Virus record (IMG/VR): IMGVR_UViG_3300046671_000011
Span: 1 to 64,000 of that record
Source: a virus
Lineage: Duplodnaviria; Caudoviricetes
Direction: 5' to 3' (one strand)
DNA length: 64,000 bases
A program made the position numbers and the translations under genes. Under the pieces are notes generated by a model that had not been told where the DNA came from, did no database searches, and saw nothing but the letters and a program-made list of their open reading frames with translations. Of this stretch, positions 1,148-64,000 are shown in pieces (the first letter of the stretch is position 1; the number at the start of each line of letters is the position of its first letter).

Positions 1148-1410
1148 TATTTAATTTCTCCATGCGAAAAATTGTACGATATCAATAAGTCGATCCCATG
1201 ATTGGTTATTCGGTATTCTCTTGCCCGACCAAATCCGCCTACACTTTCGATCAATCGAAGTCTGCGAAGTCCTAACATGATCTCATCACGCAGGAGACTA
1301 TCTTTGCAAACTTCAAGACAGACTTTCCGCAAGGTTTCGGTCTTCTCCAAACCTGTTCGAGAGTTGGATAGTATAGTCAGTACCGCTTGTGCTGCTCGTA
1401 GATCTTTCAT
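1147..1410 (-). CDS. small winged-helix DNA-binding protein (putative)
   Basis: 87 aa with wHTH-like wing LRRLRLIESVGGFGRAREYRITNHG. Confidence 0.5.
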   Translation of the reverse strand: MKDLRAAQAVLTILSNSRTGLEKTETLRKVCLEVCKDSLLRDEIMLGLRRLRLIESVGGFGRAREYRITNHGIDLLISYNFSHGEIK

Positions 1411-2116
1411 TGAGTACGCTTTCTGGAAACTGACGACCCTCTTCAGGAGTCCATCGTTCCCCTTTAGCTAACCTTACCATAGCATCGCTAAATTCCAGGC
1501 CATCAAGTTCATAGCCTGAACACTGCCAGTCCTTATACTGTCGTCTAGCAAACATCTCGAAGAACTCTACTTTTGGTCTACCAAATAATCTCTCGATATT
1601 TGCATTAGCCCGATCAGGTTTCTCACTATGTTCACCTATAGGAGAGAGTATCCATGAACGGACATCTCTCCGAACTCGCAGGACATTCTTCTTCTTAGGA
1701 AAAGTAAAAAGCCAAACATCCTCGACATTCGCACGAGTATAATATCCCATACCAGTCTTAACGAGCTTCTCCATAATGTTATCCATCTCTTCATCGAGAG
1801 GTGGCATTAGAGTAGAACCCATAGTCTTCCTAAGAGATTGCTTATAGCGCTTATTTAACTTTATCCAGGTGCATAACCGGGTCTTATATTGTAAGCCCCA
1901 ATGGGTAGCCAACTTCATAGTAAAGTCAAACTGAGGGGGAGTTGTCCAAAGACAAACCGCGCTTTCATCCTCTCGAAAGGGATCCCATAAGGACTTCCAA
2001 TCCATCATTATCTTAGGAGTAATTGTCTTATAGTGATGCTCTGCTGACCTTCCCTTACCTTTTTCGCTATGAACCTTAAACTCCCAGGGAAGATCAAGCA
2101 GAAATATCTTCGGCAT
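1313..2116 (-). CDS. MT-A70 family adenine methyltransferase
   Basis: N-terminal LLDLPW (DPPW-like motif IV), LWTT, TWIK, GMGYYTRANVE, HSEKP and FEMFARR motifs of MT-A70. Confidence 0.85.
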   Translation of the reverse strand: MPKIFLLDLPWEFKVHSEKGKGRSAEHHYKTITPKIMMDWKSLWDPFREDESAVCLWTTPPQFDFTMKLATHWGLQYKTRLCTWIKLNKRYKQSLRKTMGSTLMPPLDEEMDNIMEKLVKTGMGYYTRANVEDVWLFTFPKKKNVLRVRRDVRSWILSPIGEHSEKPDRANANIERLFGRPKVEFFEMFARRQYKDWQCSGYELDGLEFSDAMVRLAKGERWTPEEGRQFPESVLNERSTSSTSGTDYTIQLSNRFGEDRNLAESLS

Positions 2117-4135: not shown

Positions 4136-4535
4136 TTAATATCTCTTCCCATTCCTCTAAATAAATTGGTTGATTAGCCATCTCATTGTATGCAGCGATA
4201 GCTGCTTTAACCTCATCGAAACCCCATAATTCGATTGATCGAATTAAGAGAGTTTTACGGCCTTCTTTGCTATCAGCTTTTATCCGGCCTAGATTGGTAT
4301 TGCACCTTCGACAGAGAAGAGCATGAAGAGGGACAGGTAACAAATCTACAAGGTCTGTGTTTGCTATCCTGCCCCTATTATATATCTCGTGTAAATCTAG
4401 TCCTGTCGAGGATGTTTGAGGCTGACCACATAGCCCACAAAAAGGCCCCATGAGCTTAAAGTGGCTACAGATCTTTCTAGTTAGGTTTGCTCTCGTCGTC
4501 TGTCGGGACATCGAATTCCCCATTCTGTTCGCCAA
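4122..4535 (-). CDS. Zn-binding HNH-like endonuclease (putative)
   Basis: CGLCG...LHEI...LLCRRCN pattern. Confidence 0.55.
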   Translation of the reverse strand: MANRMGNSMSRQTTRANLTRKICSHFKLMGPFCGLCGQPQTSSTGLDLHEIYNRGRIANTDLVDLLPVPLHALLCRRCNTNLGRIKADSKEGRKTLLIRSIELWGFDEVKAAIAAYNEMANQPIYLEEWEEILNDEQ

Positions 4536-7688: not shown

Positions 7689-8682
7689 TAGGTTCGATCC
7701 ATCGAAAATTATCTCGGATAAATTCGTGCAAAGCCTCTTCACCTTCGGCAGCTACTAAGTCGGATACTTGTTTATATTTAGGTGTCTTGGTGATCAAACA
7801 GGCTCTTCTATCATCTCGTCTTTTAATAGCCTTAAATAATCGTTGTGCGATCTCTTCTCCAGGGCCATCATCGTTATCTTGAATAATGATAGGTATCATC
7901 ACGTTCTTTAAGCACTTATCTATATGATAGAGCCAATCCTTACCGCCCTTAAAAGCGACGGCATTGTAGCCAGCCTGATCAAGTACGATTACATCCTTTT
8001 CGGACTCTACGATAAAAAGGCTCTCACAGTATGGGCCAATTCTTTCCATAGCTGGTAATGAGGTGAGTGGTTGACCAAAAAAGCCGGGTTTCCGAGAGCC
8101 TCTCCAACTAATATATTTGACCATTCGCGGGTCAAAGGCTCGACTGTCATCCCTTCGTATACTTGCCCCTGTAAGGTGACTTTTTCCTTCCCCATCTCTA
8201 ATATAGTATGGTATGAGATAACCTGACCAGAGTCCGTTTTCTCGATAACCAATGTCCCACTTATAGATTGAATGTTTAGAAATACCGAGAGGTACGTAGT
8301 ATTCGGCTGCTCGTTCTTTTGCTTGTTCATTTGTTGACCTTTCAAACTCTTCCATGTCTATATTAGGACGTATAAGATCCTCTAACTTTGGTACTGGTAA
8401 CTCTGGTGGACGAGTTCGGGCTATTCTTCTCTCGATAGCTTTCCCTAAGAACTCTTTAGCTTCTAGAGAAGACATATTATGAGTCTTCATTATATAGATA
8501 ACATCATTGCCGTTCTCACCACAGACCCGACACCACCAGCCAGGTACTTCTGCATAAGGCCACACCTGAAAGCGATCAGTCCCACCACAGAAAGGACAAG
8601 GGCCAGACCATTGCCCGCCCTTGTAGCTATCTGAAGTCTTCTTGAGATTGACCTCTGGTGCAATGAGGTCTAGAAGGTTCAT
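7666..8682 (-). CDS. DNA primase (Zn finger + TOPRIM)
   Basis: CPFCGGTDRF...CRVC zinc finger; TOPRIM VESEKD and QDND motifs. Confidence 0.88.
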   Translation of the reverse strand: MNLLDLIAPEVNLKKTSDSYKGGQWSGPCPFCGGTDRFQVWPYAEVPGWWCRVCGENGNDVIYIMKTHNMSSLEAKEFLGKAIERRIARTRPPELPVPKLEDLIRPNIDMEEFERSTNEQAKERAAEYYVPLGISKHSIYKWDIGYRENGLWSGYLIPYYIRDGEGKSHLTGASIRRDDSRAFDPRMVKYISWRGSRKPGFFGQPLTSLPAMERIGPYCESLFIVESEKDVIVLDQAGYNAVAFKGGKDWLYHIDKCLKNVMIPIIIQDNDDGPGEEIAQRLFKAIKRRDDRRACLITKTPKYKQVSDLVAAEGEEALHEFIRDNFRWIEPNAEIQNP

Positions 8683-10513: not shown

Positions 10514-11612
10514 GTTTAATTTTATCGCCTTCTAAGTTCAATACGTTCGGGATATTCGACGGATCGAAACCCGCCCTTCTAAGTTCTTCCTCATAGCAAT
10601 ACTTAAACAAGGGACATCTAACGTATATCGTACCTGTATGTGGCTTTAAGTCTCCCTTTTCATACTGTCCACTCTTTCTCTTATAGTATTCAGGGAGTAC
10701 AGTCTTTCCACATCTCCAGTCTGTCGGGATACCCTTCTTGGCAGGCCCATTTACACGTCGAACAGCTTCAGGATCGTCTTTAAGTTTCTGATACCAATCC
10801 TTATGCTCCTGTACGAGTTCATTAAAATCACCGCGCGGATAATAGACCGTGCCATTCCAGGTCGTTGGAAAATCATCACCAGCTACCTGTATAGGCTTAT
10901 TCTTCTCATCTATCAACCACCAACCATCTTCCTCGAAAGTCTCTGCTACTATCCAGACTTTGTGAGTAACCTGATCGGGATCGGTGTCGTTTAATGGATA
11001 GGTTGTGTAGATAAATCCAAACGAGGAGTGAAGAAGGTTCATATAGACAATAGTCTGGAGCATCTGCGTCCAAGACACACCGCCATTTCTCATTACTCCT
11101 GTCCTCTTTACCTCAACAGGATAAGTTTCCGTATCCTTATTCTCGAAGACTCTACGAAGGACAATATCAGGAGTACCCGCAAAATCGAACTCCTCTGCAT
11201 TCTGCCTATCTTCAAAGGCCGCTTCCCACTTGAAAGGCATCTTAAAGTGCAGATACCGATCATTCTCTTTCCTTACTCCCCATTCAATCGCCTCAGCAAC
11301 GCTCTCGCCACGTCGCATCCCATCATCAAACTTGATTGCCAGAGTAACCGGAATAGGTTCTTTCTCAGACTCAGGAAGATTTAATCTCTCGGCAGCGTGC
11401 TTTTTCGCACAATCAAAAGCCGAACTTGCCCGCATCTTCCCTTCACTCTTCCAATTAGCACTACTCTCAGTTATCCTTACTCGATCATCGTTGATCAGAT
11501 AAGCAGGCCATATCGCTTTTAGCCAGTCCCTTATCTTGCAGGCATTGAATAACGCCTTCTCCCATTCAACTTTCGTCATACCTAAAACTTTCTGTTTAAC
11601 ACTTACACACAT
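10500..11612 (-). CDS. Cas4-like / PD-(D/E)xK exonuclease
   Basis: RASSAFDC, GTPD, EVK, Q-x3-Y and C-terminal C...CPLFKYC Fe-S ligands; real start possibly 11579. Confidence 0.75.
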   Translation of the reverse strand: MCVSVKQKVLGMTKVEWEKALFNACKIRDWLKAIWPAYLINDDRVRITESSANWKSEGKMRASSAFDCAKKHAAERLNLPESEKEPIPVTLAIKFDDGMRRGESVAEAIEWGVRKENDRYLHFKMPFKWEAAFEDRQNAEEFDFAGTPDIVLRRVFENKDTETYPVEVKRTGVMRNGGVSWTQMLQTIVYMNLLHSSFGFIYTTYPLNDTDPDQVTHKVWIVAETFEEDGWWLIDEKNKPIQVAGDDFPTTWNGTVYYPRGDFNELVQEHKDWYQKLKDDPEAVRRVNGPAKKGIPTDWRCGKTVLPEYYKRKSGQYEKGDLKPHTGTIYVRCPLFKYCYEEELRRAGFDPSNIPNVLNLEGDKIKHETT

Positions 11613-14909: not shown

Positions 14910-14938
14910 TATTATTTTCCTTCCCGTGAACACACGGA

Positions 14939-15325
14939 TTAGTAAGCTAAACTAAACTCAAAAACGTAACCTGCCCATTTACCCTTATCATGGTCAATCA
15001 TACACCAAGCATAAGAATAACCGTTGATCTTTTCGATTGATCGAACTTCAACTTTGTCTCCTGGATTTAACCAGAAAAGGACTTCTTTGAGGTTCTGATC
15101 AAAGTAAACCTTCGTTTGTACAGTCGCAGTTGCCTTTATTTTCAGGCTATTTGCATAGACGCTCACAATTGCGCCTTTTGATAGCCAAGAATCTTTAGGC
15201 TTCTCTACATATTCAAGCTGAAGATACTTACCCTCATTGCTTGAATAGCTGTTAGTAATCTTTACCTTGTGATTATCTCCCCATCGGACTATGCGGTTAA
15301 GCAAAGGATGATCATAGTTTGGCAT
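14939..15325 (-). CDS. hypothetical, SH3-like C-terminus
   Basis: LNPGDKVEV...WAGYV pattern. Confidence 0.5.
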   Translation of the reverse strand: MPNYDHPLLNRIVRWGDNHKVKITNSYSSNEGKYLQLEYVEKPKDSWLSKGAIVSVYANSLKIKATATVQTKVYFDQNLKEVLFWLNPGDKVEVRSIEKINGYSYAWCMIDHDKGKWAGYVFEFSLAY

Positions 15326-15960: not shown

Positions 15961-17991
15961 CTATACCTTACACAAACTATATCCACAAGATGTACAAGTC
16001 TCACATCCTTCAGCCATAATGAGTATCTCTCCACAATCAGGACACTTATCTTCCTTTATGATAGGCGTAAGTACCTGCTCACTTCGGCTTTGATCACGAT
16101 AGACCGTGCCACCTTTGCATCCTGCATTATACATGGTAATGTACAACTGTGCAACATCTTCTATTGTAGCTGTCGAGGGAAGGTTAACGGTTTTGGATAT
16201 ACTTGAGTCTACCCACTTCTGGATAGCTGCCTGAACTTTAACGTGCTCTTCAGGGGTAATTGTCTGTGCAGTTACGAAGTAATCAGGCAAGGCATAATTC
16301 GCGCTTTCTGGAAACTTCTGGATATAGTCATCAAGAACCTTAACATGCTCAAGATGCAATCCTAGCCGTGATTGGCGGGTATACCCGAACGCAAAAAAGG
16401 GTTCGATACCTGTAGAGGTTCCTACCATAGTTCCTATAGTTCCATTAGGAGCCTGCGTTAGCAGGGTAACATTTCGGAGACCTTTTTTGACCTTTTTACT
16501 AAGGTCAGCATGTTGCTGTAGGAAGCCACTCTTGAGGATTTTCGATTGATCGAACTCTGGAAACAGACCCTTTTCTTCTGCTAATTTAGTGCTAGTATCA
16601 TAAGCATTATTGGCAATCTCTCGGTAAAGAGTATCAATGAATTCAATACTCTCGTCCGACCCATAGCGGATACCTAATTGGATAAGCATATCAGCTAATC
16701 CCATTGTATTTAACCCGATCCGGCGCTCTTTTAGCTGCTGGTCGCGGTTTTGCTGTAGGGTGTAGGGATTGATGTCGATAATATTGTCAAGGAATCGGAT
16801 TGAAAGGCGGACAGTATGTTCAAGTTCTACCCAATCAACTTCTCCATCTTTTACAAACTTCGCAAGATTTATGGCTCCGAGGTTGCACACTCCCCACCCA
16901 GGTAAACTTTGCTCCCCACACGGATTGGTTGCGATTAAGCGGTCAAAGTAATAAGAATTACTCATTTCGTTAGCTTTATCTATAAACCAGATGCCGGGTT
17001 CGGCAGATGCCCAAGCACTCTCGGTTATCTGGTTCCATATCTCTCGCGCAGGCATACTCTTACTAGAAACTATCCTATGCATACTCCTCACCCATTTCCC
17101 GATATCCCCATCCCAATAGTTATCATAGTCTGGTTCTGTAGTATCAGGGAAGTAAAAGTGCCAAATAGTATCTTCCTCGACAGCTTTCATAAACTCATTA
17201 GAAAGTCCTACCGAGATGTTTGCATTTGTTAAATAGCCTGACTTTTTCTTGGCGTTAATAAACTCTATTAAGTCTGGATGCCAGTCTTCTAGGATAAGCA
17301 TCAAGGCTCCGCGACGTGACCCGCCTTGTTCGATGAGACCTGTTGTATTGCTATAGATAGATCCCCAAGAGACGGCTCCTGAGCTTCTACCATTTACTCC
17401 TCTGACAATTGACTGTCGAGGACGAAGAGTAGACAGATTAATCCCGACTCCACCACCTCTAGACATAATCTCAGTCATCTGACCTAAAGTTTCCAAGATA
17501 CCTAGACGGCTATCTTTTGGAGAAGGAAGTACATAGCAATTGTAAGCACTTAAGACTTGACCACTACCCACTTGGGCCATAATGCGACCCGCAGGCACGA
17601 ACTTCCAATCCTTTAAGATTTTATAGAACTCTACTTCATACTTTCTCATAAGAGCTAGAGAATTCTCAGCGACAGATGCTCCGGCAGCGACTCGATGCCA
17701 AATATGTTCAGGAGACCACTCAATCGGACGGTCACAACTCTCGATAGGAAGAGTAATCTCCTCTAAGTTAGTACCCCATAGAGTACAAGTAACATTCGAT
17801 CCGTCGAAATCGGTGACGGTTCCAAGTTCACGTTGATTGCTATCTGGATTGATAAGGCATATCGCAATATCTCCAGGAACAAAAGACCGCGTTAAGTCCT
17901 TGAGACTATAGCGGTCTAACATTATTTTATATCCGAGGATAGAAAGACCATGTGTATTACCCGTTTGGATAAACTCGGTGTCGGGGATCAT
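15961..17991 (-). CDS. nrdJ: class II (B12-dependent) ribonucleotide reductase
   Basis: PAGRI, NCYV, RGGGVG, RRGALM, TNPCGEQ, CNLGAINL, APNGT, DSSISKT and C-terminal CPDC...CTSC; no beta subunit gene nearby. Confidence 0.93.
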   Translation of the reverse strand: MIPDTEFIQTGNTHGLSILGYKIMLDRYSLKDLTRSFVPGDIAICLINPDSNQRELGTVTDFDGSNVTCTLWGTNLEEITLPIESCDRPIEWSPEHIWHRVAAGASVAENSLALMRKYEVEFYKILKDWKFVPAGRIMAQVGSGQVLSAYNCYVLPSPKDSRLGILETLGQMTEIMSRGGGVGINLSTLRPRQSIVRGVNGRSSGAVSWGSIYSNTTGLIEQGGSRRGALMLILEDWHPDLIEFINAKKKSGYLTNANISVGLSNEFMKAVEEDTIWHFYFPDTTEPDYDNYWDGDIGKWVRSMHRIVSSKSMPAREIWNQITESAWASAEPGIWFIDKANEMSNSYYFDRLIATNPCGEQSLPGWGVCNLGAINLAKFVKDGEVDWVELEHTVRLSIRFLDNIIDINPYTLQQNRDQQLKERRIGLNTMGLADMLIQLGIRYGSDESIEFIDTLYREIANNAYDTSTKLAEEKGLFPEFDQSKILKSGFLQQHADLSKKVKKGLRNVTLLTQAPNGTIGTMVGTSTGIEPFFAFGYTRQSRLGLHLEHVKVLDDYIQKFPESANYALPDYFVTAQTITPEEHVKVQAAIQKWVDSSISKTVNLPSTATIEDVAQLYITMYNAGCKGGTVYRDQSRSEQVLTPIIKEDKCPDCGEILIMAEGCETCTSCGYSLCKV

Positions 17992-18074: not shown

Positions 18075-18302
18075 TTACTCATCAACTACCTTTATAAGAG
18101 TCTCTATGGAAAAGACAATCTCCTGAAGTGGACGGAAACCGACGATTGCATGGGTAATATGCCCGCCCTCACCATAAACTCGTAAAACTGTCCCTACATC
18201 ATAAAGTCGAGGAAGGCTAACATAGAAGGATATATAGTAAGCAGGAATACTCTCGATAGCCTTCTGATCAATAATTACTACATCCATAGGTTTAATATTC
18301 AT
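18075..18302 (-). CDS. hypothetical protein
   Basis: 75-aa ORF coupled to the upstream gene. Confidence 0.5.
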   Translation of the reverse strand: MNIKPMDVVIIDQKAIESIPAYYISFYVSLPRLYDVGTVLRVYGEGGHITHAIVGFRPLQEIVFSIETLIKVVDE

Positions 18303-18631
18303 AGCCAGTAATCATCCTTTAGACTCTTGAGAGCCTTAATTTCTTCTACATCTTGATCGTTCAGTAAGAACCATTCGTTTTTAACAAGCTTATCTTTATA
18401 TCGAGTGTGTAAAGCCGCCTCTGCCCGCTCATATCCTGAACAGGGTATATGATGGAGTAAGACAGCCTCAAATGGTAAAGTTCGATAGATCGAATTGAAG
18501 CGGGTATATACATCCCTCGAACAGCCAATCTTATAGTATTTGTCAGCCTTAATCAGATAGACACCTGAAGCCGTCGCAGTTGGATACTGTCGAGGAGGTT
18601 GATCGCTAAAGATTTGATAGAGATTGATCAT
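18299..18631 (-). CDS. GIY-YIG (T5orf172/MUG113-like) nuclease domain
   Basis: GVYLI...YKIGCS...R...E..LH...KNEWF. Confidence 0.85.
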   Translation of the reverse strand: MINLYQIFSDQPPRQYPTATASGVYLIKADKYYKIGCSRDVYTRFNSIYRTLPFEAVLLHHIPCSGYERAEAALHTRYKDKLVKNEWFLLNDQDVEEIKALKSLKDDYWL

Positions 18632-18933: not shown

Positions 18934-19316
18934 AAACGGTGATGCTCAACAAGCGCGTGCCATTTCGACAGATCGAATACTCCCTGACTATCAGGGTTCT
19001 CGGCAAGAAAACGGATATTACCCTCGACATATAGCAATGCTGTCTTATGCCCATCTATCCGATCCTGAATGGTATCATTCATCTGTCGAAAAGCAGTAAA
19101 TTTTCTTATGATCTCATCCTGTTGACCATCATAGTATTTACCAAAATAAGTAACAACCTCGACAGGCTTCTTATCTTTAATGCCAATGACGATATAAAAG
19201 CGATCATCTTGCCAATAAGATAACCAGGTTTGAAACTCGTCATTCTGCCAGTTTTCTAGAGATGAGTAATCATTTCTTAAGACTTCTTCACTAAGAGTTA
19301 AAGTGCTATACGTCAT
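18900..19316 (-). CDS. hypothetical protein
   Basis: 138-aa ORF. Confidence 0.5.
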   Translation of the reverse strand: MTYSTLTLSEEVLRNDYSSLENWQNDEFQTWLSYWQDDRFYIVIGIKDKKPVEVVTYFGKYYDGQQDEIIRKFTAFRQMNDTIQDRIDGHKTALLYVEGNIRFLAENPDSQGVFDLSKWHALVEHHRLCIEELQELLK

Positions 19317-20521: not shown

Positions 20522-20985
20522 TATTTAGTATCCTTATTCTTATCTAAGTCTTCTATTCTAGCATAAGAAAAGTTTCCTGTATATATAGGTGGTCTCCATT
20601 CCTCAACATAGGGAAAACCCATGCTTTTTCGATTCTCATATTGTTCGAGTTTCTCTATAAAAGAATCTTTAGATAAAGTTAACTCTTCAGGCTCTTTTGC
20701 AGCCACAATCTGAGCAAGACAGATACTATATCCTATTAGGTCATCTACATTGTCTGTCGAGTGTGAATGCGCTTCTCGTATGAGTTTGACATAGCACATG
20801 CAAAGCGCGACCTGTTCGGGTGTCACCTTTATATTGAGAATACCTGACCAACCATCAGCTATGCGTTGAAAGTTGCGTTCAGGAGCATCATAAGATTTTT
20901 GACGCTCTTTGATAATCTCAATAACTTTCTGAAATCTTTTCGACGGATCGAATGTACTCATAACCAATAACGTCCTTTCTATCAA
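20521..20985 (-). CDS. DUF6378-like phage protein
   Basis: RQKSYDAPERNFQRIADGWS...VALCM..VKL.R...DN..DLIGY. Confidence 0.75.
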   Translation of the reverse strand: MIERTLLVMSTFDPSKRFQKVIEIIKERQKSYDAPERNFQRIADGWSGILNIKVTPEQVALCMCYVKLIREAHSHSTDNVDDLIGYSICLAQIVAAKEPEELTLSKDSFIEKLEQYENRKSMGFPYVEEWRPPIYTGNFSYARIEDLDKNKDTK

Positions 20986-24288: not shown

Positions 24289-24394
24289 AGAACCTCATAT
24301 TTCGATTGATCGAAAGTGGCCTCGGCGTTTGCCAAAAGGCCACGATCTTAGGAGGATGTCGTCACGTATACTGCCCGTCTACAGGATACGCTAG

Positions 24395-26134: not shown

Positions 26135-26935
26135 CTATAGACCGTCATTGTCCGTGACTAAGCCTTTATAGAAGCTAAGATTAGCCAGGACGTTGCCGGG
26201 ATCACCTCGATCATAAAGCTCGTCTTGCCAAGCTCCATATACTGCCGTGATATAAGGCTCTACAAGTCTGAGCATTGCTAGACTTGGTAGCCTGATTTCT
26301 TCCTGAGCATCGTCGGCACAGCGTAAGGTTGCATACTTGAGAAAGTTATGAAGATCGCAGTTGACTACTATCGTCATATACTGGATGCTGTAGGGAAGAA
26401 AGAAGCGGGCCATTTCCCGACTAATTCCTCTCTCGATAGCATGTTGATAGTTTAACCTACCTACTTTAATCGTCTGTTCGAGTGTCTGTGAGAAGTAATT
26501 GCCAATCTCAGGTTCAAGATTTTCTCCACTCATCTGCTTATTTATCTTATGCTGAGTCCGCCAGGTCTGCGGTTGATAGAACTCGTCCTTTAACTGATGG
26601 TATCTACCACTCTCACTGTTAAACCTGAAAGTCCTGTGCCTGAGCAATTGGATGATAGCTACTACAGGTAGTCTCATCTCGAAGGTCAAGGAGACCTGTT
26701 CGAAGGGGGAAGTATGTTTATCTTTCCATAAACGCTCGATCAGTTTCCGGTCAGACTCTTCTCCTTTAGAGATTCGATTGATCGAAGTTCTAGCAGCCAT
26801 CGCTATCCATTCATCTGGTGAAGGAGCATCAGGGCGTAGAGGATCGGGCATCATCATCGCTAAGGCTACATACCCGATATCGTCACCATATACTTTGCGG
26901 TCAATATCAAGATAAGGCATTTTTGTCCTCGTCAC
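26135..26935 (-). CDS. thyX: flavin-dependent thymidylate synthase
   Basis: HTSPFEQ, QLLRHRTFRFNSESGRY, N..LHNFL. Confidence 0.93.
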   Translation of the reverse strand: MTRTKMPYLDIDRKVYGDDIGYVALAMMMPDPLRPDAPSPDEWIAMAARTSINRISKGEESDRKLIERLWKDKHTSPFEQVSLTFEMRLPVVAIIQLLRHRTFRFNSESGRYHQLKDEFYQPQTWRTQHKINKQMSGENLEPEIGNYFSQTLEQTIKVGRLNYQHAIERGISREMARFFLPYSIQYMTIVVNCDLHNFLKYATLRCADDAQEEIRLPSLAMLRLVEPYITAVYGAWQDELYDRGDPGNVLANLSFYKGLVTDNDGL

Positions 26936-37761: not shown

Positions 37762-37828
37762 ATTAAATGATCGATCTGTTTTCGATCCATCGAATTTACA
37801 GTAATCGATCAAGTAATCACTTTTAGCA

Positions 37829-40714: not shown

Positions 40715-41520
40715 TTTTTATAGGAGATCACGACCAAACCTTTCGAGACATTGGGTGGTTTTTCTCTAAGGAGGTTATCACCGAACCTATTTAATAGGCA
40801 TGTACACACCTATATCCGCTTTTATCGTTCTATACCCGTGATATGTATAGAGAAGGATAGCTTCCTACAAGAAACTGTCGAAGGTTTAAGACTGATCAGG
40901 TCTTTATTTCCCGTACTAACCTTTAGGGAAACGCTAATCCATAGGTGCTGTCACGGACGCAAACCGGGCCGTTATGGTAGGATCCCCACCCCATAGTTAT
41001 TCACGGTACTATGGAAAAACGCCCTCGAAGATTATTTCCCCCTCCAGGTCGGGATACCTCACCACACCACCAGCCTACGTTTAAGTTTGGTATTCTCCGT
41101 TAAGGGTATACCCCTTAGCGGACTGTAGGATAAGTCTAGATGGTCTTGATAGTCCTTTGCCGTGCATTACTGCACCCTCTACTCAGGCTTATATCCCTGT
41201 AAAGAGATATTATAGAAGTCAGGCTCGTAACCTGTTTGTGCCCTTACTGTATTCTCAAAGCCTATCGTCAGCGCCTTCTAGAAAGGGATAGGTTCAGGGC
41301 TAGGAGTCTTATTGTGCCTGCATTTGCAGCCTGTCTAGCGATGTATTTAACCATACTTTTCCGTCGAATTGTATAGCGAGACAGGTTCGGCTCTCCGCAA
41401 ATCTTAAATGGAGTATCCTGCATCGAAGCAGGGTCTCTACCGAATTTTTTTGTAGTGCCTTTCGAGTGTATTTGTACGCCTTCTGTCTACTCAGCACTAA
41501 TTCGATAGATCGAAACCTTT
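40715..41520 (-). ncRNA. candidate large structured non-coding RNA
   Basis: ~800 nt with no credible ORF and at least 10 hairpins (e.g. 41417-41432, 41330-41385, 41162-41175 GNRA, 41102-41116, 40991-41014, 40888-40904, 40736-40887). Confidence 0.5.
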
Positions 41521-43051: not shown

Positions 43052-43104
43052 GTAACAAATTTAATAATAAAGATATCCATTAGAACTCCTTATTCGATTG
43101 ATCG

Positions 43105-43127
43105 AAAAGAGAGGGGCGTTAGCCCCT
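43105..43127 (-). terminator. terminator after RNAP gene, C(UAAC)G loop
   Basis: AGGGGC-TAAC-GCCCCT then CTCTTTT. Confidence 0.65.
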
Positions 43128-48375: not shown

Positions 48376-49821
48376 GTTCTTAGCTTCTTCTCCATCTCCC
48401 AAAACTTATCACGAACAAAATAGTCATCACCACCAGGGAATGCCATTCTATATACATCTAACATCCCAAGCGCATAAAACCGCTTCCTCTCGAAATCAAC
48501 ACTTACAGGTAGAGAAAATGTAAATATATCCATCTCTAGCATCATGTTGTTGATTGTGGTGCATATCTGTTCAGCTACTTGTTGTTTATCCATCTTGTCT
48601 CCTTTATAGTAAATACAGGACAACCCGAAGGCTGTCCCATATACTTATGATTCTCCATTTACCCACTGATCGAGAGTGTTTTCCATCTCTATCAGTTCGC
48701 CCTCTGTCTTTGTTGTCCACATCAAAGTACCAACTAGCATATCTTTGAGTGTATAGAACTCATCAGTTAATACTGAGAGTCGAGCAATGTTGTCGTCGTC
48801 AGACGGGTTGTCTTGCATGAAGACCAATATATCTGCAAGCACCTGCCGCCATTTATCACGAGCGGTTAGCAGTCCTAACATCAAGAACATGATTTGACTC
48901 CTACTTTCGATCCGTCGAATTTTGACCACTCAGAAAACGGTTATATTTCACCGCATCCTGAATGACGATAATAAGCAAAAGGACAACGATTGTGATGACG
49001 GCACAATCAATTGTAGACATTATCCCTCCAGTTCGGGCTGATGAGTTGTTTGATACTCGATACTACGATTGAAGTCCTTGATAGCCCACCGATAGTTGGC
49101 TGTTATATACTTATAGCCAAACGTATTGCGATGTGTGTACGTGATGGTGTTATTTGTCCATGAGCGAAGTGTATAGGTATGCTTACCTAACACTAAGACC
49201 AGATCTGTATATGTGCGATGTGTATATGACATAGCACCTAATGAGATCATTCGATTAATCAAATTGAGGATCATCGCGGATTTTCTCTTTCTCTCTCGAA
49301 CAGTATTGAATATAAATATATATACAACTATCACACTACATCTCTTGCCGCGTTAGCGGTTAATACAGGCTTTCATGTGTGATTGATATTGCATATACGG
49401 GCTATCTATACCAGAGATGTTTCCAGTCTGTTGTATAGTTAAACATTATAACATTCAATCTAATCTCTTCATAGCTGTACTAGGGCTATTCGATTGATCG
49501 AATGTCTCTCAATTATGAACAACTGACCAGGGGCTATCCCCCCTGGGTTGTATATTTATTGTAGGCTTGCCGATATGCTGCCATTGCAGTCGGGCCAGAT
49601 CCATGACAGCTACCGAAAACGGCTTTCCATCCATTGCCGAACTTGAATACTGTGATGTGTATATCCACAATACCTAATCGGGGAATGTTCACGCTCTCAA
49701 TGGTGTCTACTCGCTTGTTAGCTCTTAGATCATCTAAGAAGCTCGTTGTCTGCTTTGTGAGCATAGTTGGGTATCTCCTAAATGATAGATTTGAAATGGA
49801 TGATTCGAGACTCTGGCGCAA
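48354..49821 (-). other. small early-type hypothetical ORFs (48354-48623, 48645-48929, 49020-49334, 49534-49821)
   Basis: Co-oriented ORFs near the strand switch. Confidence 0.5.
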
Positions 49822-50703: not shown

Positions 50704-50934
50704 ATGGCTGCGACATCACACAAGAACAATTTAACCGGAGCACAACGCCTGGTTATGTTATACATGAAATTACTGACGGGGATACCCATTAACCCGACTA
50801 TATACGCTAAAGAGATGGGTTTACAGCGCGGCAGCATCTACTATCAACTAGATTTACTATCGGGAATGAATATCCCGGTAGTTAATTGCAGTTACGGACA
50901 ATGGACACTTTTGCAGTTTTGTGGAGATAATTAA
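50704..50934 (+). CDS. HTH transcriptional regulator
   Basis: INPTIYAKEMGLQRGSIYYQLDLL...G.W wHTH. Confidence 0.7.
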   Translation: MAATSHKNNLTGAQRLVMLYMKLLTGIPINPTIYAKEMGLQRGSIYYQLDLLSGMNIPVVNCSYGQWTLLQFCGDN

Positions 50935-51149: not shown

Positions 51150-52997
51150 ATGGCTAAGCAGATTATCCAGCCAACAAGGAAAGTTGACCGACTAAATCAG
51201 GCTGACTTTGATATCTTCAAACAGGGTTCAGTAAACGTCAACTTCTTTACAGACTGGTATATGCGTTCACCCTCGTCAGGTACTCGCTTCTCCAGACATA
51301 GTGATAGTGATAATCCCAAGTTAGATGCTATCTGGTTGATGTTGATTGAAGCCTGGACGAAGGAAGGAAAGCCCGGTGATGGTTGGACTCATCAAGGAGT
51401 CCCTTATCGGATATTGGTAGATGAGAATGAAGACCCGATTTTTTGGGTTCATCATGGTTGGCTCTGGCAAGACTGGCAGAAAGACTGCTTTCATGCTCCC
51501 CAACCTGAACAGACAATCATTGGCGGGTTTGGTTGTGGTAAGACTGCTTATATAGCAATGTCTCTTGCAGTTTTGGCAGCGACAATTCCCAACTTTCGAG
51601 GGTATGCAGTTGCTCCTCAGATGCTACAGGCTATGGAAGTCTATCGCTATATCTCGACAGCCTGCGCGGATACTCCCTGGTGGAACCGATGGGTTTGGCG
51701 TAACCCTATGAAACCTATCCCCTTATTCGAGATTAAGAATTCTTATGTAGGAACTTCTACTATAGAGATCCTTAGTATCGAACATGACCCCGAAAAAGTG
51801 CGTACTCTCGAAGGAGATGTAATCTTTCTCGATCAGGCTGAAAAGATTGATGACTTAGATGGTCTTATTCGTGACCTGGGATCGCGTTTGCGCGGTGCTG
51901 TGCATGGAAGGTCTCGACTAGGCCGTTTGTGTCTGATTGCTAACGCTGGCGATAACCCTCAACTATGGTATCGCTATGATATGGGAGAACTTGAACCTAA
52001 TATCTATCTGTCTAAGAACCCAAAAAGCTCGGATAATCCTGCTATTAGTAAGAAAGACCTCGAAAGTCTCTATCGAAGAGTAGGTGGAACTAAGCAAGAT
52101 GCCGAACAGTGGATGAATGGTCAGCGCCCGATGGGTCGGGGTGAACACTTTCCACCAGATATGGTCAGAGCTTGCACAAATGTAGGCTTAGATAACGTCA
52201 TGGATGCTTGGCTTAAGCAAAAAGACGACGAGATTACGGAGTGGGAGACGGTTAAAGAGACTATCAACTATGATATGTCTCCTCTCGATAGTGAGGCTCA
52301 ACAATATCATCGGTTAACTACTCATAGAGTAGGAGTCTACCGATGGGAAATGCCACCTGATCATCGGGCTAAGCGCCAATATATAGTTATTGCTGACCCT
52401 GGACAGGGAAATCCACCTGATCGCAACTCTGCGTGCATAATGGCGTGGGATATCACTGACTTTCCATCAAAACCAGCGACTATGCGGGCTTTTAATTGGG
52501 TCTTTTGCAATGGAAGTTACTGGCCTTTTCTACAAGAGTATGAGAGATATGTAAAACTCTATCATGCTCAGGGTAGAAATGCCTTCGATAGCACTGGAAC
52601 CCAAAAAGGCTTCGATGAACTTGTGTTTGCGACTATGGAGCTACATGCTCAGGGTATGGATATGGCCCAAAACGGTAAATATCTAGCTCTAAATAGTCTT
52701 AAATTCTTTATGGGTAAGTATCTTATGCAATTTCCGTATATCTCTCACCTTGTTAATCAGTTAACCAACTATCGGTTGCCTGATACCAAGATCGCACAGG
52801 ATTTGGTGATGACAATGGCGATGAGTGCGGCTTATATGCGTAGGTTCTACTATGAAGATATCCCTGATGATGAGACTTTAGCAAGAACCAGAGCTACTAC
52901 TCGAACAGTAAATAGATATGAGCGAGATTCGATTGATCGAAATTCCAGAAGTGGTCAACCTGTCATTCGAACAGATAGGAGAGGGATAAAGATATGA
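51150..52997 (+). CDS. terL: terminase large subunit
   Basis: Walker A GGFGCGKT, Walker B region VIFLDQAE, coupling motif IAN, nuclease IADPG and C-terminal D..M; precedes portal. Confidence 0.88.
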   Translation: MAKQIIQPTRKVDRLNQADFDIFKQGSVNVNFFTDWYMRSPSSGTRFSRHSDSDNPKLDAIWLMLIEAWTKEGKPGDGWTHQGVPYRILVDENEDPIFWVHHGWLWQDWQKDCFHAPQPEQTIIGGFGCGKTAYIAMSLAVLAATIPNFRGYAVAPQMLQAMEVYRYISTACADTPWWNRWVWRNPMKPIPLFEIKNSYVGTSTIEILSIEHDPEKVRTLEGDVIFLDQAEKIDDLDGLIRDLGSRLRGAVHGRSRLGRLCLIANAGDNPQLWYRYDMGELEPNIYLSKNPKSSDNPAISKKDLESLYRRVGGTKQDAEQWMNGQRPMGRGEHFPPDMVRACTNVGLDNVMDAWLKQKDDEITEWETVKETINYDMSPLDSEAQQYHRLTTHRVGVYRWEMPPDHRAKRQYIVIADPGQGNPPDRNSACIMAWDITDFPSKPATMRAFNWVFCNGSYWPFLQEYERYVKLYHAQGRNAFDSTGTQKGFDELVFATMELHAQGMDMAQNGKYLALNSLKFFMGKYLMQFPYISHLVNQLTNYRLPDTKIAQDLVMTMAMSAAYMRRFYYEDIPDDETLARTRATTRTVNRYERDSIDRNSRSGQPVIRTDRRGIKI

Positions 52998-53167: not shown

Positions 53168-54823
53168 ATGGCAGGTGACTTTGGTGATCCCCGCTTAGCT
53201 GGATATTTTGATGTCGAGGATAGAAGAGTAGGAACTAGCGGGACAATCCCGTTTGAGAAGGCCGAATTCCCTGCCTCTTTCCCTTTTGCACGCTGGAATT
53301 TCCAGAGCCAGAAGTATCTAACCTATTGGCGATACTTTACAGGGGAGTTTTTAGAAGAAACTATCCCTAATCAGCAGGACGAGGATGGAAATCCTATCCT
53401 TAAGTATCCTTTGCAGATTAACTATATTAAATCTGCGGCGATGAAGCATAACTATGTTCTTTGGGGAGAAGTTCAGGATACACCTGATTGTCTTGCGCCA
53501 GTTCGTGCTCGACCTCGATTAGATGCAGGCCAAGAGCGACCAGAAGATGACGAGGTTCAAAAGGCTAAAGAAGCTGAGAATTTAGTCAATCGTGTCTGGA
53601 TAGAAAACTCAGGCCGTGCGCTTCAGCAAGAATCGGGTCTTCTTCAGCAGTTTCTAGGTGGGATTATTATCCGAGTAGGCTGGCAACCAGATGATGATGA
53701 ATTAGAGTATGGTATTCGACTAGAATATATACTGCCTGATTTCTTCCTACCAGTTTGGGATAATGGTAAGCCTGATAATTTGCTAGAGGCATGGATTGTC
53801 TATCGAATGCCTAGTCGAGAGGCACAAATTAGGTTTGGTTTCGACGGATCGAATGACACTAATGCTCAACCACTCTATATAGAACATTGGACTAAAGAAT
53901 CCATCTCTATTACCCTCGGCGGAAAACCTATCTCTTATAATATCAATGGCGTCGATATTACTTATGATGATATAGATAATCCGTTCGGGTTTGTACCCTT
54001 TGTTTACATCCCTCGTGAGCGGGCAGGTAGCTATTATGGTCTATCCATGATAGATGACCTGATTGGCATGGTTAAGGAGATGAACTCTCGATGGGCTGAT
54101 CTTGGAGATGTTATCCGTGATACTTCTCATCGTGATATCTTTGTCCGCAACGTGCCGGGTAATATCCGAACCCGTGACATTGGTTCCTCTCGATCAGCTA
54201 TTGACTTAGGAACTGCTTCTCCAGGCAGTAGTGATCCTGAAGCCTTTGTGATTGACCCACCTTCTCTTGCTGAAAGTCTAACTACCTATCCTGAAGACTT
54301 ACGTAAACAATTTATGCGCGATGCCTTTATCACAGGAGTTTCTGAAGGTGAAGATGAAGGCTCTCAACGGTCAGCATTAACTCTTGCTTTTCGTATGTGG
54401 CCTTTAACCGCAAAGGTACGGACTATTCGGACAAATTGGGGAGTTGCTCTCACTCGAATAGCAAAGATGATTGTTAAGATGGCAGCAATCAAAGATGTAG
54501 CAGGAATAACGCTTGAACATCTAGAGGATATTGATTGGGAAGTTGATTGGTCGCCAATGGTTCCAAGAGATGCCGAACAAGAGCTTAACGCTGTCGTGAC
54601 AAACGTACAGACTAATCTAATGTCACACGTCACAGCGATTGAAAAACAAAGAACTGTACATGATCCCCTTGACGAATGGGAGAAAATAAAGGATGATATG
54701 AAATGGATGGCATCGCTTGAAGCTTCTAAGACACCTCAGAAGCAAGCTGATGGCACAACCAAAGTATCTCCTGACTTACCAAGTCTCGGACAATCTGGTT
54801 CCCCGACAACGGAAACAGAGTAG
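53168..54823 (+). CDS. portal protein (SPP1-like)
   Basis: 551 aa after terL; Y..Y..G, INY, NPFGFVPFVYIP, S.IDDL, SAL.L helix. Confidence 0.85.
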   Translation: MAGDFGDPRLAGYFDVEDRRVGTSGTIPFEKAEFPASFPFARWNFQSQKYLTYWRYFTGEFLEETIPNQQDEDGNPILKYPLQINYIKSAAMKHNYVLWGEVQDTPDCLAPVRARPRLDAGQERPEDDEVQKAKEAENLVNRVWIENSGRALQQESGLLQQFLGGIIIRVGWQPDDDELEYGIRLEYILPDFFLPVWDNGKPDNLLEAWIVYRMPSREAQIRFGFDGSNDTNAQPLYIEHWTKESISITLGGKPISYNINGVDITYDDIDNPFGFVPFVYIPRERAGSYYGLSMIDDLIGMVKEMNSRWADLGDVIRDTSHRDIFVRNVPGNIRTRDIGSSRSAIDLGTASPGSSDPEAFVIDPPSLAESLTTYPEDLRKQFMRDAFITGVSEGEDEGSQRSALTLAFRMWPLTAKVRTIRTNWGVALTRIAKMIVKMAAIKDVAGITLEHLEDIDWEVDWSPMVPRDAEQELNAVVTNVQTNLMSHVTAIEKQRTVHDPLDEWEKIKDDMKWMASLEASKTPQKQADGTTKVSPDLPSLGQSGSPTTETE

Positions 54824-58312: not shown

Positions 58313-58408
58313 TTCCCTCGCATTAGGTTTGTCCACACTTCCCGGTAGGTCTGGACAAGATCAAATTCGACGGATCGAAATAAAGCAATCGAACCGAATA
58401 CGGGGGCA

Positions 58409-60805: not shown

Positions 60806-61143
60806 AGGAACTAGAGTCGGAAATATGGGGGTACTTGTCCTATTGGACAGACTTCCATAACGCTGATGATGCTACAAAGATATTACTAGGTAATGATGAG
60901 AATAAGCCAGAGATCCCTTATTACTTCCTTATCTATAGAAAACTCAAGAAATATGGAGGGACATTACCTTTTTTATGGGAAGGTGGCTATATGGATCAGC
61001 CTTATCTAGCTACTATCTGTATAGAAAGGTGTATATCAGTCGAACAGGATTATGAGTATAGTCTAAAAGCGAAGGCAAATGAAGTTAACCAGAAACCAGA
61101 ATCAAACAATCCGTCACCTACAGACCCTCGGAATTTCGAATAG
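60772..61143 (+). CDS. tail assembly chaperone -1 frame extension (gpT-like)
   Basis: Overlapping -1 frame ORF entered at C CCA AAC (60772-60778); LPF..GGYMDQP motif typical of gpT. Confidence 0.7.
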   Translation, partial: PKLQSSLDSQLEELESEIWGYLSYWTDFHNADDATKILLGNDENKPEIPYYFLIYRKLKKYGGTLPFLWEGGYMDQPYLATICIERCISVEQDYEYSLKAKANEVNQKPESNNPSPTDPRNFE

Positions 61144-64000
61144 TAATATCCAGAAAGTTTTGGATACCTTCCCCGAATCTATCGAGCAAGGTCAGATCGC
61201 GTCCGGTCTTGATTGGCTCTCATCTGAAAAGCTAGACCCGCAATCTCGCGTCTCTATTAAGGCCGATATTGTTGAGTCTACTATTGGTCAGGTTAACTCT
61301 CTTATTAAAGAAGGTCTCATTCATCCGGCTCGTGCAAAGGAATGGGACTTTCGCTGGTCAACCTCAACGCCGTTTGCTGATCGATCTCTCTATGAGGCTA
61401 TCTCTTATATTAAAGATGTTAATGCTGATCGAGGAAGGGCGTTAGCCCGTTTTCGATCAATCGAAAATCAACTTCAGGACTTAGAGACCCTAAAAGCTAA
61501 GGTTCTTAATCCTGTCTTTGAACGTCAAGCTCACTTAGGACTGGATATCTCTACTACTCCTGCTTTCTATGGCGATGTCCCTTATCTTAAGGTTGGTAAC
61601 TGGTTGGCTACCGAGCAGGAACTTGAGGATATCTCTACTTCTGATAGGAAAGCCTATCGTTGGACGACTACAATTCGGGCAATTTCTCAAGGCGACAAAG
61701 TTCAGGGCTTAATCGGCAACTTCCCTATCTATCAGGCAATGCCGATAGATATGTCTACCGGGAAACTTTCCCCTCGAAAGGATATTCCCGATTTCCATGA
61801 ACTCCAGCAGCAAACACTTGAACACCTATTTAGTCAGGGTCAAAACCCCTGGTCTGTAATCAAGAAAGAACGTACTCTAGGAGCTATGGCTTCTGGTGGT
61901 GGAGAAGCTGACATCGGGGATATTATCGCGCCTTATGCGACGATGGGTGCTCCCTTTATTGACTATACAATGGGAACTATGCGGATACCTGGTTGGTATC
62001 GGATAGTGCCTGGTCTTGAGCGTACAAACGTCCAGGAGTATACAGGAAAAGATCAGCGCGTTCTTAAACTCAAAAGACTACATGATGACGAAGGTAATGC
62101 AATTGTTAAATGGGCAGGAGACGCGACGGCGCTGGCAGGCGATTGGGCAAACACCAGGAATAATGGAGCTACGGTTTTCCATGATCTGAGTGCTCGAATG
62201 CTAGGTAGATTTGTTGCCCAAGATGAGAATGGAGAGGATTATGTCTATAACGTTCTTGGTAACTCTGCCAAGCAGATAAAGAAAGATCGTATAGAGCAGC
62301 GTCCTACTGTTCAACTTGGATACCGTGATGAGATGGGTATCTTTCAGGCAATACCTTTCGAGAGTAAAAGCCGTTTTGGGTTCCCTATTATTGGTGCTCC
62401 CTTGACTGTAGCTGTCTCGGTAACAGGCGGATTAATTCCTGAAGGTCAGGCTTATGCACATCCGTCACTAGAAGCCTTTGATGAAGCCAATTTTCGCTTA
62501 AAGATCTCTAGTGATGAGACTGGCTTTAAGATGACCACAGAGACTCAGAACGCGCTTAATGCCTCGATAGGCCAAACCTTTAAGCGTGGACAAGAGTTAA
62601 TGATTAATGGTGTCCCTTTGAAGGTTACTAAGAACTTTCGAGAGGGAAAGATTAAGGGCTGGAATATCCTTCATGAAGGTGATGAGTCTGGTGAAGGTGG
62701 TGCTGACTATCTGGTTGTTCATACGGAAGTTCGAGGCGCACCCTATGCACTCGACAGCAATGCCGCCAAGATTAATATAGCTAAGAGTAATCTTGTTAAG
62801 CGCTATGGTGCTGATATCGTCGCAGGTGGGATGACTGCCTGGAATCAACAGATGGAAGTCTCTCTCGGTATCATGTCCGATGAGAACTATAACCGTTTGC
62901 TGGAGAAAGCCCTTTTTCGTCGTCAACGAGAAGGTATGGATACCAGCCATATTTGGGATCGTATGCAGGCTAAGAATGAGGAAAGTCTCTGGAATAAGGA
63001 AAATCTTGGCATCCATCAAGAAATGTTCAGGGAACACCTTCTCGAAAGTACCTTCTTTAAGAAGTTCTCTACTATAGTTAACTACTCTACATTAGGTGTC
63101 TTCCAGAGTAGGAACGAGAATATCCAGGATGAAGTTGCCCGACATTTTGGCTATGCTGATCGATCACAATTACCACCTATGGCCCAACTACTTGGGTTTA
63201 ATGATCAGTCAGAACTTCCTCAGTTTATAGATAAAGTTGAGTCTATTGGTCAGGGTCTATATAAGATTACCGGGAACGAGATGTTCTTCCGATTCGAGAC
63301 CCGCTATCGTCCTACATTACTACCGTCGAGAGAACAAACTAAGTTCAATACCGAAGCTCTTACCGGATATGGTATTAGAGTAGAGGATGACTTAGGGTTT
63401 AATAAGACTAGTCGAGCGGTCACTGATATTATCAATATGTCAGGTCGGGCTGATCGCAATGCTGCCGCTCAGCTTGTTCGGGCTGTTGGTCTCAATCGCG
63501 GCTTAAAGGTTGATAAGGCTGATGAGTATCTAGAGTTTAACAAGAATACGGTTACGCCTGCTATTTATGCAGAGTATCAGGCACTCTCAGGGACTCTTGC
63601 GAAGAAGCTAGAGAACAATGAGATTACCGAGTATGAACTCACACAGGCCAAGTTAGCTTATTTGAAGACAGCTTTCGATCCGTCGAAATCTATCCAGATG
63701 GGGAACGATCACCGTGCGTTCTTTTCTCCCTCGATAGATTGGATAAGTAAGAAATCCTCTCCTAACTTCTCAGGTCAGGAAACTTCTAATCTGGTTAATA
63801 AGGCTTTAGGAGCTTTCGAGAGTTTAATTACTGAGAGTCAGGCGGATATCCGCAACGTCGCCACTCCACAGGTAAAAAGCCTTATACGCTCACTCGATCA
63901 GGAATTTGAGTCTCCAGGTATTAAGCAGAAGTTTATGAGTGGCAATGATAAAGCTGCCCGAAACTACCCTGTTGTTGGTGACTATGCATTAGCGCCTAAC
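61079..64000 (+). CDS. giant virion protein at tape-measure position (>970 aa, runs off window)
   Basis: Open frame from ATG 61079 (MKLTRNQ...) to the window end (...DYALAPN); absent from the track because it has no stop; N-terminal part looks globular rather than TMP-like. Confidence 0.75.
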   Translation, partial: MKLTRNQNQTIRHLQTLGISNSNIQKVLDTFPESIEQGQIASGLDWLSSEKLDPQSRVSIKADIVESTIGQVNSLIKEGLIHPARAKEWDFRWSTSTPFADRSLYEAISYIKDVNADRGRALARFRSIENQLQDLETLKAKVLNPVFERQAHLGLDISTTPAFYGDVPYLKVGNWLATEQELEDISTSDRKAYRWTTTIRAISQGDKVQGLIGNFPIYQAMPIDMSTGKLSPRKDIPDFHELQQQTLEHLFSQGQNPWSVIKKERTLGAMASGGGEADIGDIIAPYATMGAPFIDYTMGTMRIPGWYRIVPGLERTNVQEYTGKDQRVLKLKRLHDDEGNAIVKWAGDATALAGDWANTRNNGATVFHDLSARMLGRFVAQDENGEDYVYNVLGNSAKQIKKDRIEQRPTVQLGYRDEMGIFQAIPFESKSRFGFPIIGAPLTVAVSVTGGLIPEGQAYAHPSLEAFDEANFRLKISSDETGFKMTTETQNALNASIGQTFKRGQELMINGVPLKVTKNFREGKIKGWNILHEGDESGEGGADYLVVHTEVRGAPYALDSNAAKINIAKSNLVKRYGADIVAGGMTAWNQQMEVSLGIMSDENYNRLLEKALFRRQREGMDTSHIWDRMQAKNEESLWNKENLGIHQEMFREHLLESTFFKKFSTIVNYSTLGVFQSRNENIQDEVARHFGYADRSQLPPMAQLLGFNDQSELPQFIDKVESIGQGLYKITGNEMFFRFETRYRPTLLPSREQTKFNTEALTGYGIRVEDDLGFNKTSRAVTDIINMSGRADRNAAAQLVRAVGLNRGLKVDKADEYLEFNKNTVTPAIYAEYQALSGTLAKKLENNEITEYELTQAKLAYLKTAFDPSKSIQMGNDHRAFFSPSIDWISKKSSPNFSGQETSNLVNKALGAFESLITESQADIRNVATPQVKSLIRSLDQEFESPGIKQKFMSGNDKAARNYPVVGDYALAPN

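Follow-up and report, generated by a model that had tools for sequence, protein, structure and literature searches.

Why would a virus carry the same 14-bp word about every 2 kb of its genome, within its genes as well as between them? The question is raised by the record IMGVR_UViG_3300046671_000011, a virus contig of 73,860 bp with an estimated completeness of 82%, the first 64 kb of which form the window analysed here. The word, TTCGA-YN-GATCGAA (hereafter the 14-mer), was noticed in an initial annotation that counted at least 31 copies by eye. Pattern matching found exactly 31 exact matches in the window at the same positions, the first at 1246 and the last ending at 63687, whereas 100 dinucleotide-preserving shuffles of the window contained 0. 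The feature is real and strongly selected, and it is of a recurrent kind whose mechanism is unexplained. The best explanation we can offer, which we hold with about even confidence, is that the copies are duplex-DNA docking sites of a co-evolving, phage-encoded and probably dimeric protein that acts genome-wide.

Open reading frames (ORFs) were roughly called, on the minus strand to ~49.5 kb and on the plus strand beyond, together with one ORF of more than 4,260 codons (the giant ORF), and gene content was taken from Pfam and PHROG scans of 94 ORFs. The data are the assembled sequence only, where nicks and methylation do not show.

A nearly invariant 14-bp word across the genome

The full contig holds 35 copies of the 14-mer, 20 on the plus and 15 on the minus strand, at a density of 474 per Mb; the reversed control pattern gave 0. 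Twelve of the 14 positions are invariant. At position 6, 23 copies have T and 12 have C, while position 7 admits T, G or A but never C. The core had been described as YNGA; its GA is indeed invariant, whereas N is too broad and the core reads Y-D-G-A. Beyond the 14-mer only two flanking bases show a lean towards A/T. One-mismatch copies number zero and two-mismatch look-alikes about three, and conservation of the word is thus all-or-none. The copies are listed below by coordinates, strand and core, with their surroundings where these are distinctive.

1246..1259, minus, core TT, intergenic, directly 3' of the MT-A70 methyltransferase gene
4230..4243, plus, core TT, coding, antisense
7693..7706, minus, core TG, primase gene junction
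10555..10568, plus, core CG, start codon 49 bp downstream
15032..15045, plus, core TT
16541..16554, plus, core TT, within RNR, FDAEK replaced by FDQSK
17795..17808, minus, core CG, within RNR (FDGSN)
18481..18494, plus, core TA, within the T5orf172/MUG113 (GIY-YIG-like) ORF
18964..18977, plus, core CA, start codon 38 bp downstream
20939..20952, plus, core CG
24301..24314, plus, core TT, intergenic, Shine-Dalgarno sequence of the next gene 4 nt on
26773..26786, plus, core TT, within ThyX
27940..27953, minus, core TT, 33 bp upstream of the dCTP deaminase start
29455..29468, plus, core TT, directly before a Shine-Dalgarno sequence and ATG
31073..31086, minus, core TT
32792..32805, minus, core TA, intergenic, member of the only close pair
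32824..32837, minus, core TT, intergenic, 32 bp from the copy at 32792
34354..34367, plus, core CT
37781..37794, minus, core TG, terminator-like hairpin ~25 nt after
39917..39930, minus, core TG
41501..41514, plus, core TA, intergenic
43093..43106, plus, core TT, intergenic, terminator-like hairpin on one side, Shine-Dalgarno sequence and ATG on the other
44929..44942, plus, core TT, within an 883-residue ORF, 17 codons from the site of relatives L009 and L010
46966..46979, minus, core CG
48906..48919, minus, core CG, Shine-Dalgarno sequence and ATG 3 nt on
49489..49502, plus, core TT, intergenic
52928..52941, plus, core TT, 3' end of terL
53840..53853, plus, core CG, within the portal gene
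58366..58379, plus, core CG, intergenic, between the genes for structural proteins of 179 and 608 residues, a position common to relatives L009, L011 and L216
61452..61465, minus, core TT, giant ORF
63674..63687, minus, core CG, giant ORF
65128, 67064, 68534 and 72425 (contig positions), four further copies past the window

The word is selected as DNA

Going by the rough ORF calls, 8 of the 35 copies are intergenic, 12 lie in sense and 15 in antisense orientation to a gene, which places 27 (77%) inside called ORFs. As the initial annotation had stated, they occur in both orientations and in varied reading frames, and all three frames of each strand are in use. The recurring peptides that it reported (FDGSN, FDPSK, xRSIE and xRLIE) are present, and copies do lie in the genes for RNR, ThyX, primase, TerL and portal, as well as in the giant ORF.

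Shuffling of codons, set beforehand as the refuting test, failed to reproduce the count. Synonymous-codon shuffles retained 8.5 copies, 8 of which are the untouched intergenic ones (~0.5 coding copies as against 27 observed), and codon-order shuffles retained 8.0, none of them coding. The word has also been written at the expense of protein sequence. At 16541, within the class II RNR gene, it encodes FDQSK in place of the FDAEK (or a close variant of it) of 18 homologues, in an alignment without any indel, which indicates that the 14-mer arose by substitution and cost conserved residues. Together the shuffles, the use of all frames and this replacement support selection on the DNA, not on the proteins, in agreement with what had been proposed. 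We rejected the footprint of an insertion or mobile element, as the alignments of RNR and of a large protein contain no indels and a 14-bp insertion would not keep the reading frame.

Copies are evenly spaced and favour gene junctions

The interval of about 2 kb given at the outset understates the order in the series, since the copies are spread more evenly than chance would place them. Gaps average 2,094 bp with a coefficient of variation of 0.53, compared with 0.96 under random placement, and none of 5000 simulated placements was as regular as the observed one. No gap exceeds 4.5 kb, whereas the largest gap in the simulations had a median of 8.1 kb. Splitting the copies by orientation has the same effect as random thinning of a single regular series, so orientation appears immaterial; neither a strand switch nor polarity domains were found along the contig.

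Placement relative to genes is not random. Eighteen of the 35 copies are no more than 60 bp from a gene boundary, where 8.4 are expected (P=0.0005), and several of them occupy the gap that separates a stop codon or a terminator-like hairpin from the following Shine-Dalgarno sequence. Within the giant ORF, which exceeds 12 kb, six copies are spaced 1.5-3.9 kb apart. The preference for junctions, taken with the copies in the giant ORF, suggests that what is required is a site every few kb, placed where it is cheapest.

Downstream of the sole close pair (32792 and 32824) there is a small Cys-rich ORF with two CxxC pairs and a probable start at 32725 (region 32405-32837, minus strand). This ORF could encode an autoregulated zinc-ribbon protein; it had no Pfam match, and no homologue was found in the fetched parts of relatives.

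Palindrome avoidance and the asymmetric core

The arms of the 14-mer form a dyad and its centre does not. An account of this asymmetry comes from the hexamer content of the genome, which lacks 25 of the 64 palindromic hexamers, among them CGATCG, CTCGAG, GTCGAC, CTGCAG, GCATGC and TTTAAA. Non-palindromic hexamer pairs are rarely missing (21 of 2016, or 1%), and most of those that are contain GGWCC or CCCAG. For CGATCG there are 0 copies where ~19 are expected. Avoidance of restriction sites on this scale points to hosts with very many restriction systems. Either C at position 7 or the perfect palindrome T(TCGA)3A would create CGATCG, and bacterial genomes do contain versions of the 14-mer with C at position 7. 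The centre would therefore be asymmetric because CGATCG is avoided, the observed word being the closest allowed approximation of T(TCGA)3A.

Other words are missing as well: GGWCC and CYCGRG are absent, and CCCAG is found only within CCCAGG. The relatives described below share the avoidance of palindromes, lacking 13-38 of the 64 palindromic hexamers in ~21 kb.

Related phages carry their own words at conserved positions

Neither megablast with 20 kb nor tblastn with TerL matched a cultured phage, and searches for related loci by a single protein, portal against viral contigs and RNR against genomes, returned nothing. Relatives were found as metagenomic contigs of 73-92 kb with a TerL 47-61% identical to that of this phage and the same gene order, and words were counted on partial stretches of them. 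The initial annotation had suggested a test for the motif in related phages. The 14-mer is absent from all TerL relatives examined; what they have are dyad words of their own at conserved positions.

Six relatives each carry a distinct dyad word of 12-17 bp, and TTCG...CGAA arms are common to four of them. L009 has 7 copies of a TTCGGC-NN-GCCGAA type in 31.5 kb and L010 has 7 of a TTCGRG-GT-CTCGAA type in 31.6 kb, while L011 has a TTCGAY-AY-RTCGAA type among 8 matches to TTCG-N6-CGAA in 21.8 kb. The general pattern TTCG-N6-CGAA thus occurs 7, 7 and 8 times in these three, against 0.2-0.4 simulated and about zero for controls of other spacer length. The remaining words are TTCGAC-N-GTCGAA in L216 (4 copies), TCYACC-GGTRGA in L215 (6 copies) and a 17-bp palindrome in L012 (4 copies); simulated expectations for the relatives' words are 0.0-0.4. 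These last three words were picked post hoc, but words of 12-17 bp repeated 4-6 times in 21 kb cannot be chance. L132, a more distant relative, showed no such word.

Positions are better kept than words. A site lies just 3' of terL in L009, L010, L011 and L215, and inside the 3' end of terL in this phage and L012. Another falls between the genes for structural proteins of 179 and ~605 residues in this phage, L009, L011 and L216. In L009 and L010, where flanks are 65-80% identical, the cores differ at orthologous positions, including junctions at which the site sits between a stop codon and a Shine-Dalgarno sequence. One of their orthologous sites lies in a gene, where the encoded residue differs (P as against S). 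In a large protein of 816-883 residues the site of this phage is 17 codons from that of L009 and L010, so the neighbourhood is conserved and the exact codons are not. That the words differ while positions are kept argues against a passive host signature and suggests that reader and sites evolve together.

A host word mirrored or exploited by the phage, akin to HIP1, uptake sequences or Chi, would indeed be iterated, intragenic and indifferent to frame, and this phage has clearly been moulded by host restriction systems. HIP1 (GCGATCGC) is a palindrome of cyanobacterial host genomes linked to GATC and CGATCG methyltransferases, and a HIP1-like methylation-linked repeat had been one of the first suggestions for the 14-mer. 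The two are alike as short palindromic words iterated within genes in all frames. They part in that CGATCG, which is the core of HIP1, is absent here, the word is specific to a phage lineage and one-mismatch variants are missing. Nor does the 14-mer show the one-mismatch halo, transition-specific depletion or orientation polarity of a passive signature; phages of 43-53% GC have the outer arms in common, and relatives whose flanks are 65-80% identical differ in core at the same positions. Among 406 genomes of Chloroflexota, the phylum of the nearest RNR homologues, the 14-mer reaches at most 3 copies per genome (~1 per Mb), nowhere near phage density. RNR identity of 55-59% does not identify the host, and this comparison covers that phylum only, which may not be the host's. 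One of the genomes (G232, 1 copy) is unpublished, and the conclusion is independent of it. At least 118 stretches in IMG/VR contain the exact 14-mer, with a single copy each among the matches listed, which is uninformative. We regard an origin in the host as most improbable, and the HIP1-like variant of it found no support, the relatives' differing cores in particular speaking against it.

Proposed docking sites for a co-evolving protein

In our preferred explanation a sequence-specific, probably dimeric phage protein would dock on the 14-mers in double-stranded DNA, and its specificity would evolve together with its sites. The ideal site would be T(TCGA)3A, with the banned CGATCG forcing the nearest allowed forms; each copy would then consist of a strict half-site, TTCGATC, and a relaxed half-site, TTCGA-Y-D. 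A site would be needed about every 2 kb and never more than ~4.5 kb apart, going into short intergenic gaps if possible and otherwise into coding sequence by substitution. The bound lattice may serve as a roadblock or silencer in the manner of the stoperators discussed below, or may organise or protect the genome, and would do so genome-wide, not gene by gene. Dispersed sites for a dimeric phage or host protein had been envisaged from the start: the dyad arms, the independence of orientation, the invariant core and the relatives' versions all fit a dimer, whereas a host protein found no support.

Whether the word is read in duplex DNA or as a small hairpin in RNA or single-stranded DNA bears directly on this. 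G8 and A9 are invariant in the 12 sense and the 15 antisense copies alike. An RNA loop would vary between these classes (GA as against UC), which favours duplex recognition. A hairpin could act in mRNA at gene junctions, in processing, stabilisation or as a translational operator, or as a lagging-strand priming signal. Many copies do follow a stop codon and precede the Shine-Dalgarno sequence of the next gene, and positions 5 and 10 co-vary among lineages as A-T, G-C or G-T. In L010 all 5 of the 5 asymmetric copies stand in the sense compatible with G-U pairing in mRNA. That orientation test is not significant, however, and in L215 the orientations are 3 and 2. Predicted hairpins are weak, at -3.3 to -6 kcal/mol with two extra flanking pairs and -0.3 for the L215 word, and of the coding copies 12 would have a YDGA loop and 15 a UCHR loop, both invariant. 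With no strand switch along the genome and 27 copies in ORFs, where processing would be harmful, a hairpin function seems highly improbable.

The reader would be encoded by the phage, and two small ORFs upstream of terL were considered.

50704..50934, plus, winged-helix ORF of 76 residues, two genes upstream of terL, the sole recognisable DNA-binding fold
50934-51149, plus, conserved ORF of 71 residues, after the winged-helix ORF and abutting terL

The 76-residue protein is a weak candidate for the reader. Its model has a predicted local distance difference test (pLDDT) score of 85, and the best fold matches are the wings of NiaR, BirA and PurR, with template modelling (TM) scores of 0.6-0.7 and weak E-values. 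The ORF is kept in all relatives with DNA examined except L012 and L132, as a single 76-residue ORF in this phage and L215 and as a tandem double domain of 148-154 residues in L009, L010 and L011. Its recognition helix differs in a phage whose word has other arms. The 71-residue ORF was rejected as a DNA-binding protein; its fold is predicted with confidence and matches neither a DNA-binding nor any other known fold.

Several observations weigh against the docking explanation. Between L009 and L010 the winged-helix protein is 95% identical, the highest of 14 proteins compared, although the cores of their sites differ at 4 of 6 positions; this argues against its reading the variable core and leaves it a weak candidate. 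Among the 94 ORFs scanned with Pfam there was neither a ParB nor a repressor, nor any other protein that clearly binds DNA, and ~18% of the genome lies outside the contig. Conservation as strict as this, all or none, is as much in keeping with enzyme recognition sites as with operators. The uniform sense of the asymmetric L010 copies is, in addition, a weak hint of strand-specific reading.

Enzyme recognition and partition as possible alternatives

Recognition of the restriction-modification type characteristically goes with exact conservation and a defined degeneracy, and the copies might accordingly be recognition sequences of a phage DNA enzyme, a site-specific nickase or methyltransferase, the virion DNA being nicked as in T5 or modified for replication, repair or self-marking. 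The phage encodes two proteins that could be considered for this role.

1313..2116, minus, MT-A70 family DNA methyltransferase (Pfam), candidate modification enzyme
18299..18631, minus, stand-alone ORF of 110 residues with a T5orf172/MUG113 (GIY-YIG-related) domain, candidate nickase

A 14-mer lies just downstream of the methyltransferase gene. The word of this phage holds GATC and two TCGA tetramers, and fast-changing specificity domains would suit the differing cores of L009 and L010. GATC and TCGA are nevertheless missing from the relatives' words, and neither of the two proteins is tied to the word; in the MT-A70 protein Pfam found no fused DNA-binding domain. An enriched and evenly spaced modification site, moreover, has no known rationale. 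We think recognition by such an enzyme unlikely.

Sites that are palindromic, free of orientation and evenly spread could also act like parS or a centromere in segregation or compaction, for example in a plasmid prophage or during replication, with an actin-like protein working through an unseen adaptor; parS-like loading had been among the suggestions of the initial annotation. A gene for such a protein stands at the end of the contig.

3-812, minus, actin-like gene (ALP_N, Pfam), truncated at the contig end

This gene hints at plasmid-like segregation or DNA positioning, and the adaptor gene expected downstream of it would fall off the contig. It is the only hint of lysogeny in the contig, where no repressor or integrase was found in 74 kb (82% complete). 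The scans recognised RNR, ThyX, dCTP deaminase, helicase, primase, a UvsX-like recombinase, two SSBs and RNase H, together with Ro60, RNA ligase, the MT-A70 methyltransferase, the actin-like ALP, the T5orf172/MUG113 nuclease-like ORF and 9 tRNAs. This set of replication, nucleotide-metabolism and tRNA genes looks lytic, which speaks against partition. So does the arrangement of known ParMRC and ParABS centromeres, which cluster beside their genes and do not form 35 genome-wide sites, and Pfam detected no ParB or ParR within the contig. A partition function is, in our judgement, very unlikely.

Comparison with known dispersed sites

The closest published case is the repeat of the Cluster O mycobacteriophages (Corndog and relatives), a 17-bp dyad, TGTTCGG-N3-CCGAACA, present in 34 copies with invariant arms. 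One-mismatch copies number only three, the repeat has no orientation and most of its positions are conserved; its authors proposed sites for a dimeric protein but assigned no function to the repeat (PMC4351075). Dispersed lineage-specific palindromes in phages have thus been on record since 2015, their function never having been established. The likeness to the present case is extensive: about 34-35 copies in a siphovirus-type genome of ~70 kb, invariant inverted arms around a variable centre, almost no one-mismatch copies, meaningless orientation, and placement both between and within genes at positions mostly conserved in relatives. The word and the phage lineage are, however, unrelated. Here 77% of copies lie in called ORFs, regular spacing is demonstrated, the relatives' cores differ on shared arms, and restriction-site avoidance accounts for the asymmetric centre.

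The closest case with a known function is that of the Cluster A stoperators, bound by L5 gp71 or Bxb1-type repressors, of which there are up to ~30 sites with a motif that diverges along with the repressor (PMC6550527, PMC9283540). They have been demonstrated to block transcription elongation genome-wide (PMC9283540, PMC6550527). Both systems consist of dozens of short genome-wide sites whose motif differs among related phages (here L009, L010 and this phage) while positions are kept. Stoperators lack dyad symmetry, are contacted by a repressor monomer and follow the direction of transcription, whereas the present sites are dyad-symmetric and free of orientation, and the contig revealed no repressor or integrase.

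Cellular and plasmid systems offer looser parallels. KorB OB operators of RK2, the sites of Noc, SlmA and MatP, and the dispersed centromeres of N15 are palindromes of 12-16 bp bound by dimers at many dispersed positions. Their density is far lower, they are mostly extragenic and the reader is encoded nearby, in contrast to this phage, in which no ParB/KorB-like gene was found. Words of the Chi/KOPS type are strand-polar, unlike the 14-mers (20 plus, 15 minus).

Any mechanism has to accommodate four constraints, namely even spacing independent of genes, all-or-none copies, the switching of words in place and coexistence with palindrome avoidance. One speculation, decidedly unlikely on present evidence, is that the lattice is a fast-evolving identity mark of each lineage by which the reader tells its own DNA from that of the host or of rival phages. 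Possible uses would be stopping a translocating nuclease, blocking the travel of restriction enzymes or RNA polymerase, and excluding heterotypic co-infecting phages. If true, this would account for the even spacing, the rapid in-place switch of the core and the overwriting of conserved residues in a genome otherwise purged of palindromes. Should the docking protein be found, the reader and site specificities of the clade would form a naturally matched set with which to test the function of such lattices; without it, the 14-mer stands as a well-documented example of a known yet unexplained phenomenon.

Other features of the genome

The giant ORF occupies 61079-64000 (plus strand) in the window, runs on to contig position 73858 and leaves the contig there. 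It stands in the tape-measure position, and its first 973 residues had no Pfam or PHROG match. Counterparts in relatives measure 2,948-7,082 residues.

A Ro60/TROVE protein with a vWA domain (13344-14933), an RNA ligase (19306-19980) and nine tRNA genes (20011-25576) are all encoded on the minus strand, and one of the nine tRNA calls is odd in having a four-base anticodon. L009 and L010 encode a protein of 394-395 residues with a PARP catalytic domain (L213:12215-13402, L214:11985-13169), a counterpart of which was not found in the 74 kb of this phage.

The genome also contains a second iterated word, CTCGAYAG, with 74 copies in 73.9 kb compared with 10.0 +/- 2.9 in synonymous shuffles (for example at 456-463, 3848-3855, 14154-14161 and 51653-51660). 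It belongs to a TCGA-centred family that includes TCGA-N-AG (193 copies), CTCGAAAG (23) and TCGAWCAG (48). Its copies, 46 plus and 28 minus, use six frames with Poisson-like spacing and a graded halo of neighbours, and 1 of them is intergenic. A link between the two words was rejected, as the distances between them are random. We likewise rejected a repair drive of the Vsr/HIP type, since transition neighbours of CTCGAYAG are not depleted and the 14-mer is without any neighbours. CTCGAYAG is absent from the relatives, and L009 has CCTGACC instead, 32 times in 21.8 kb.

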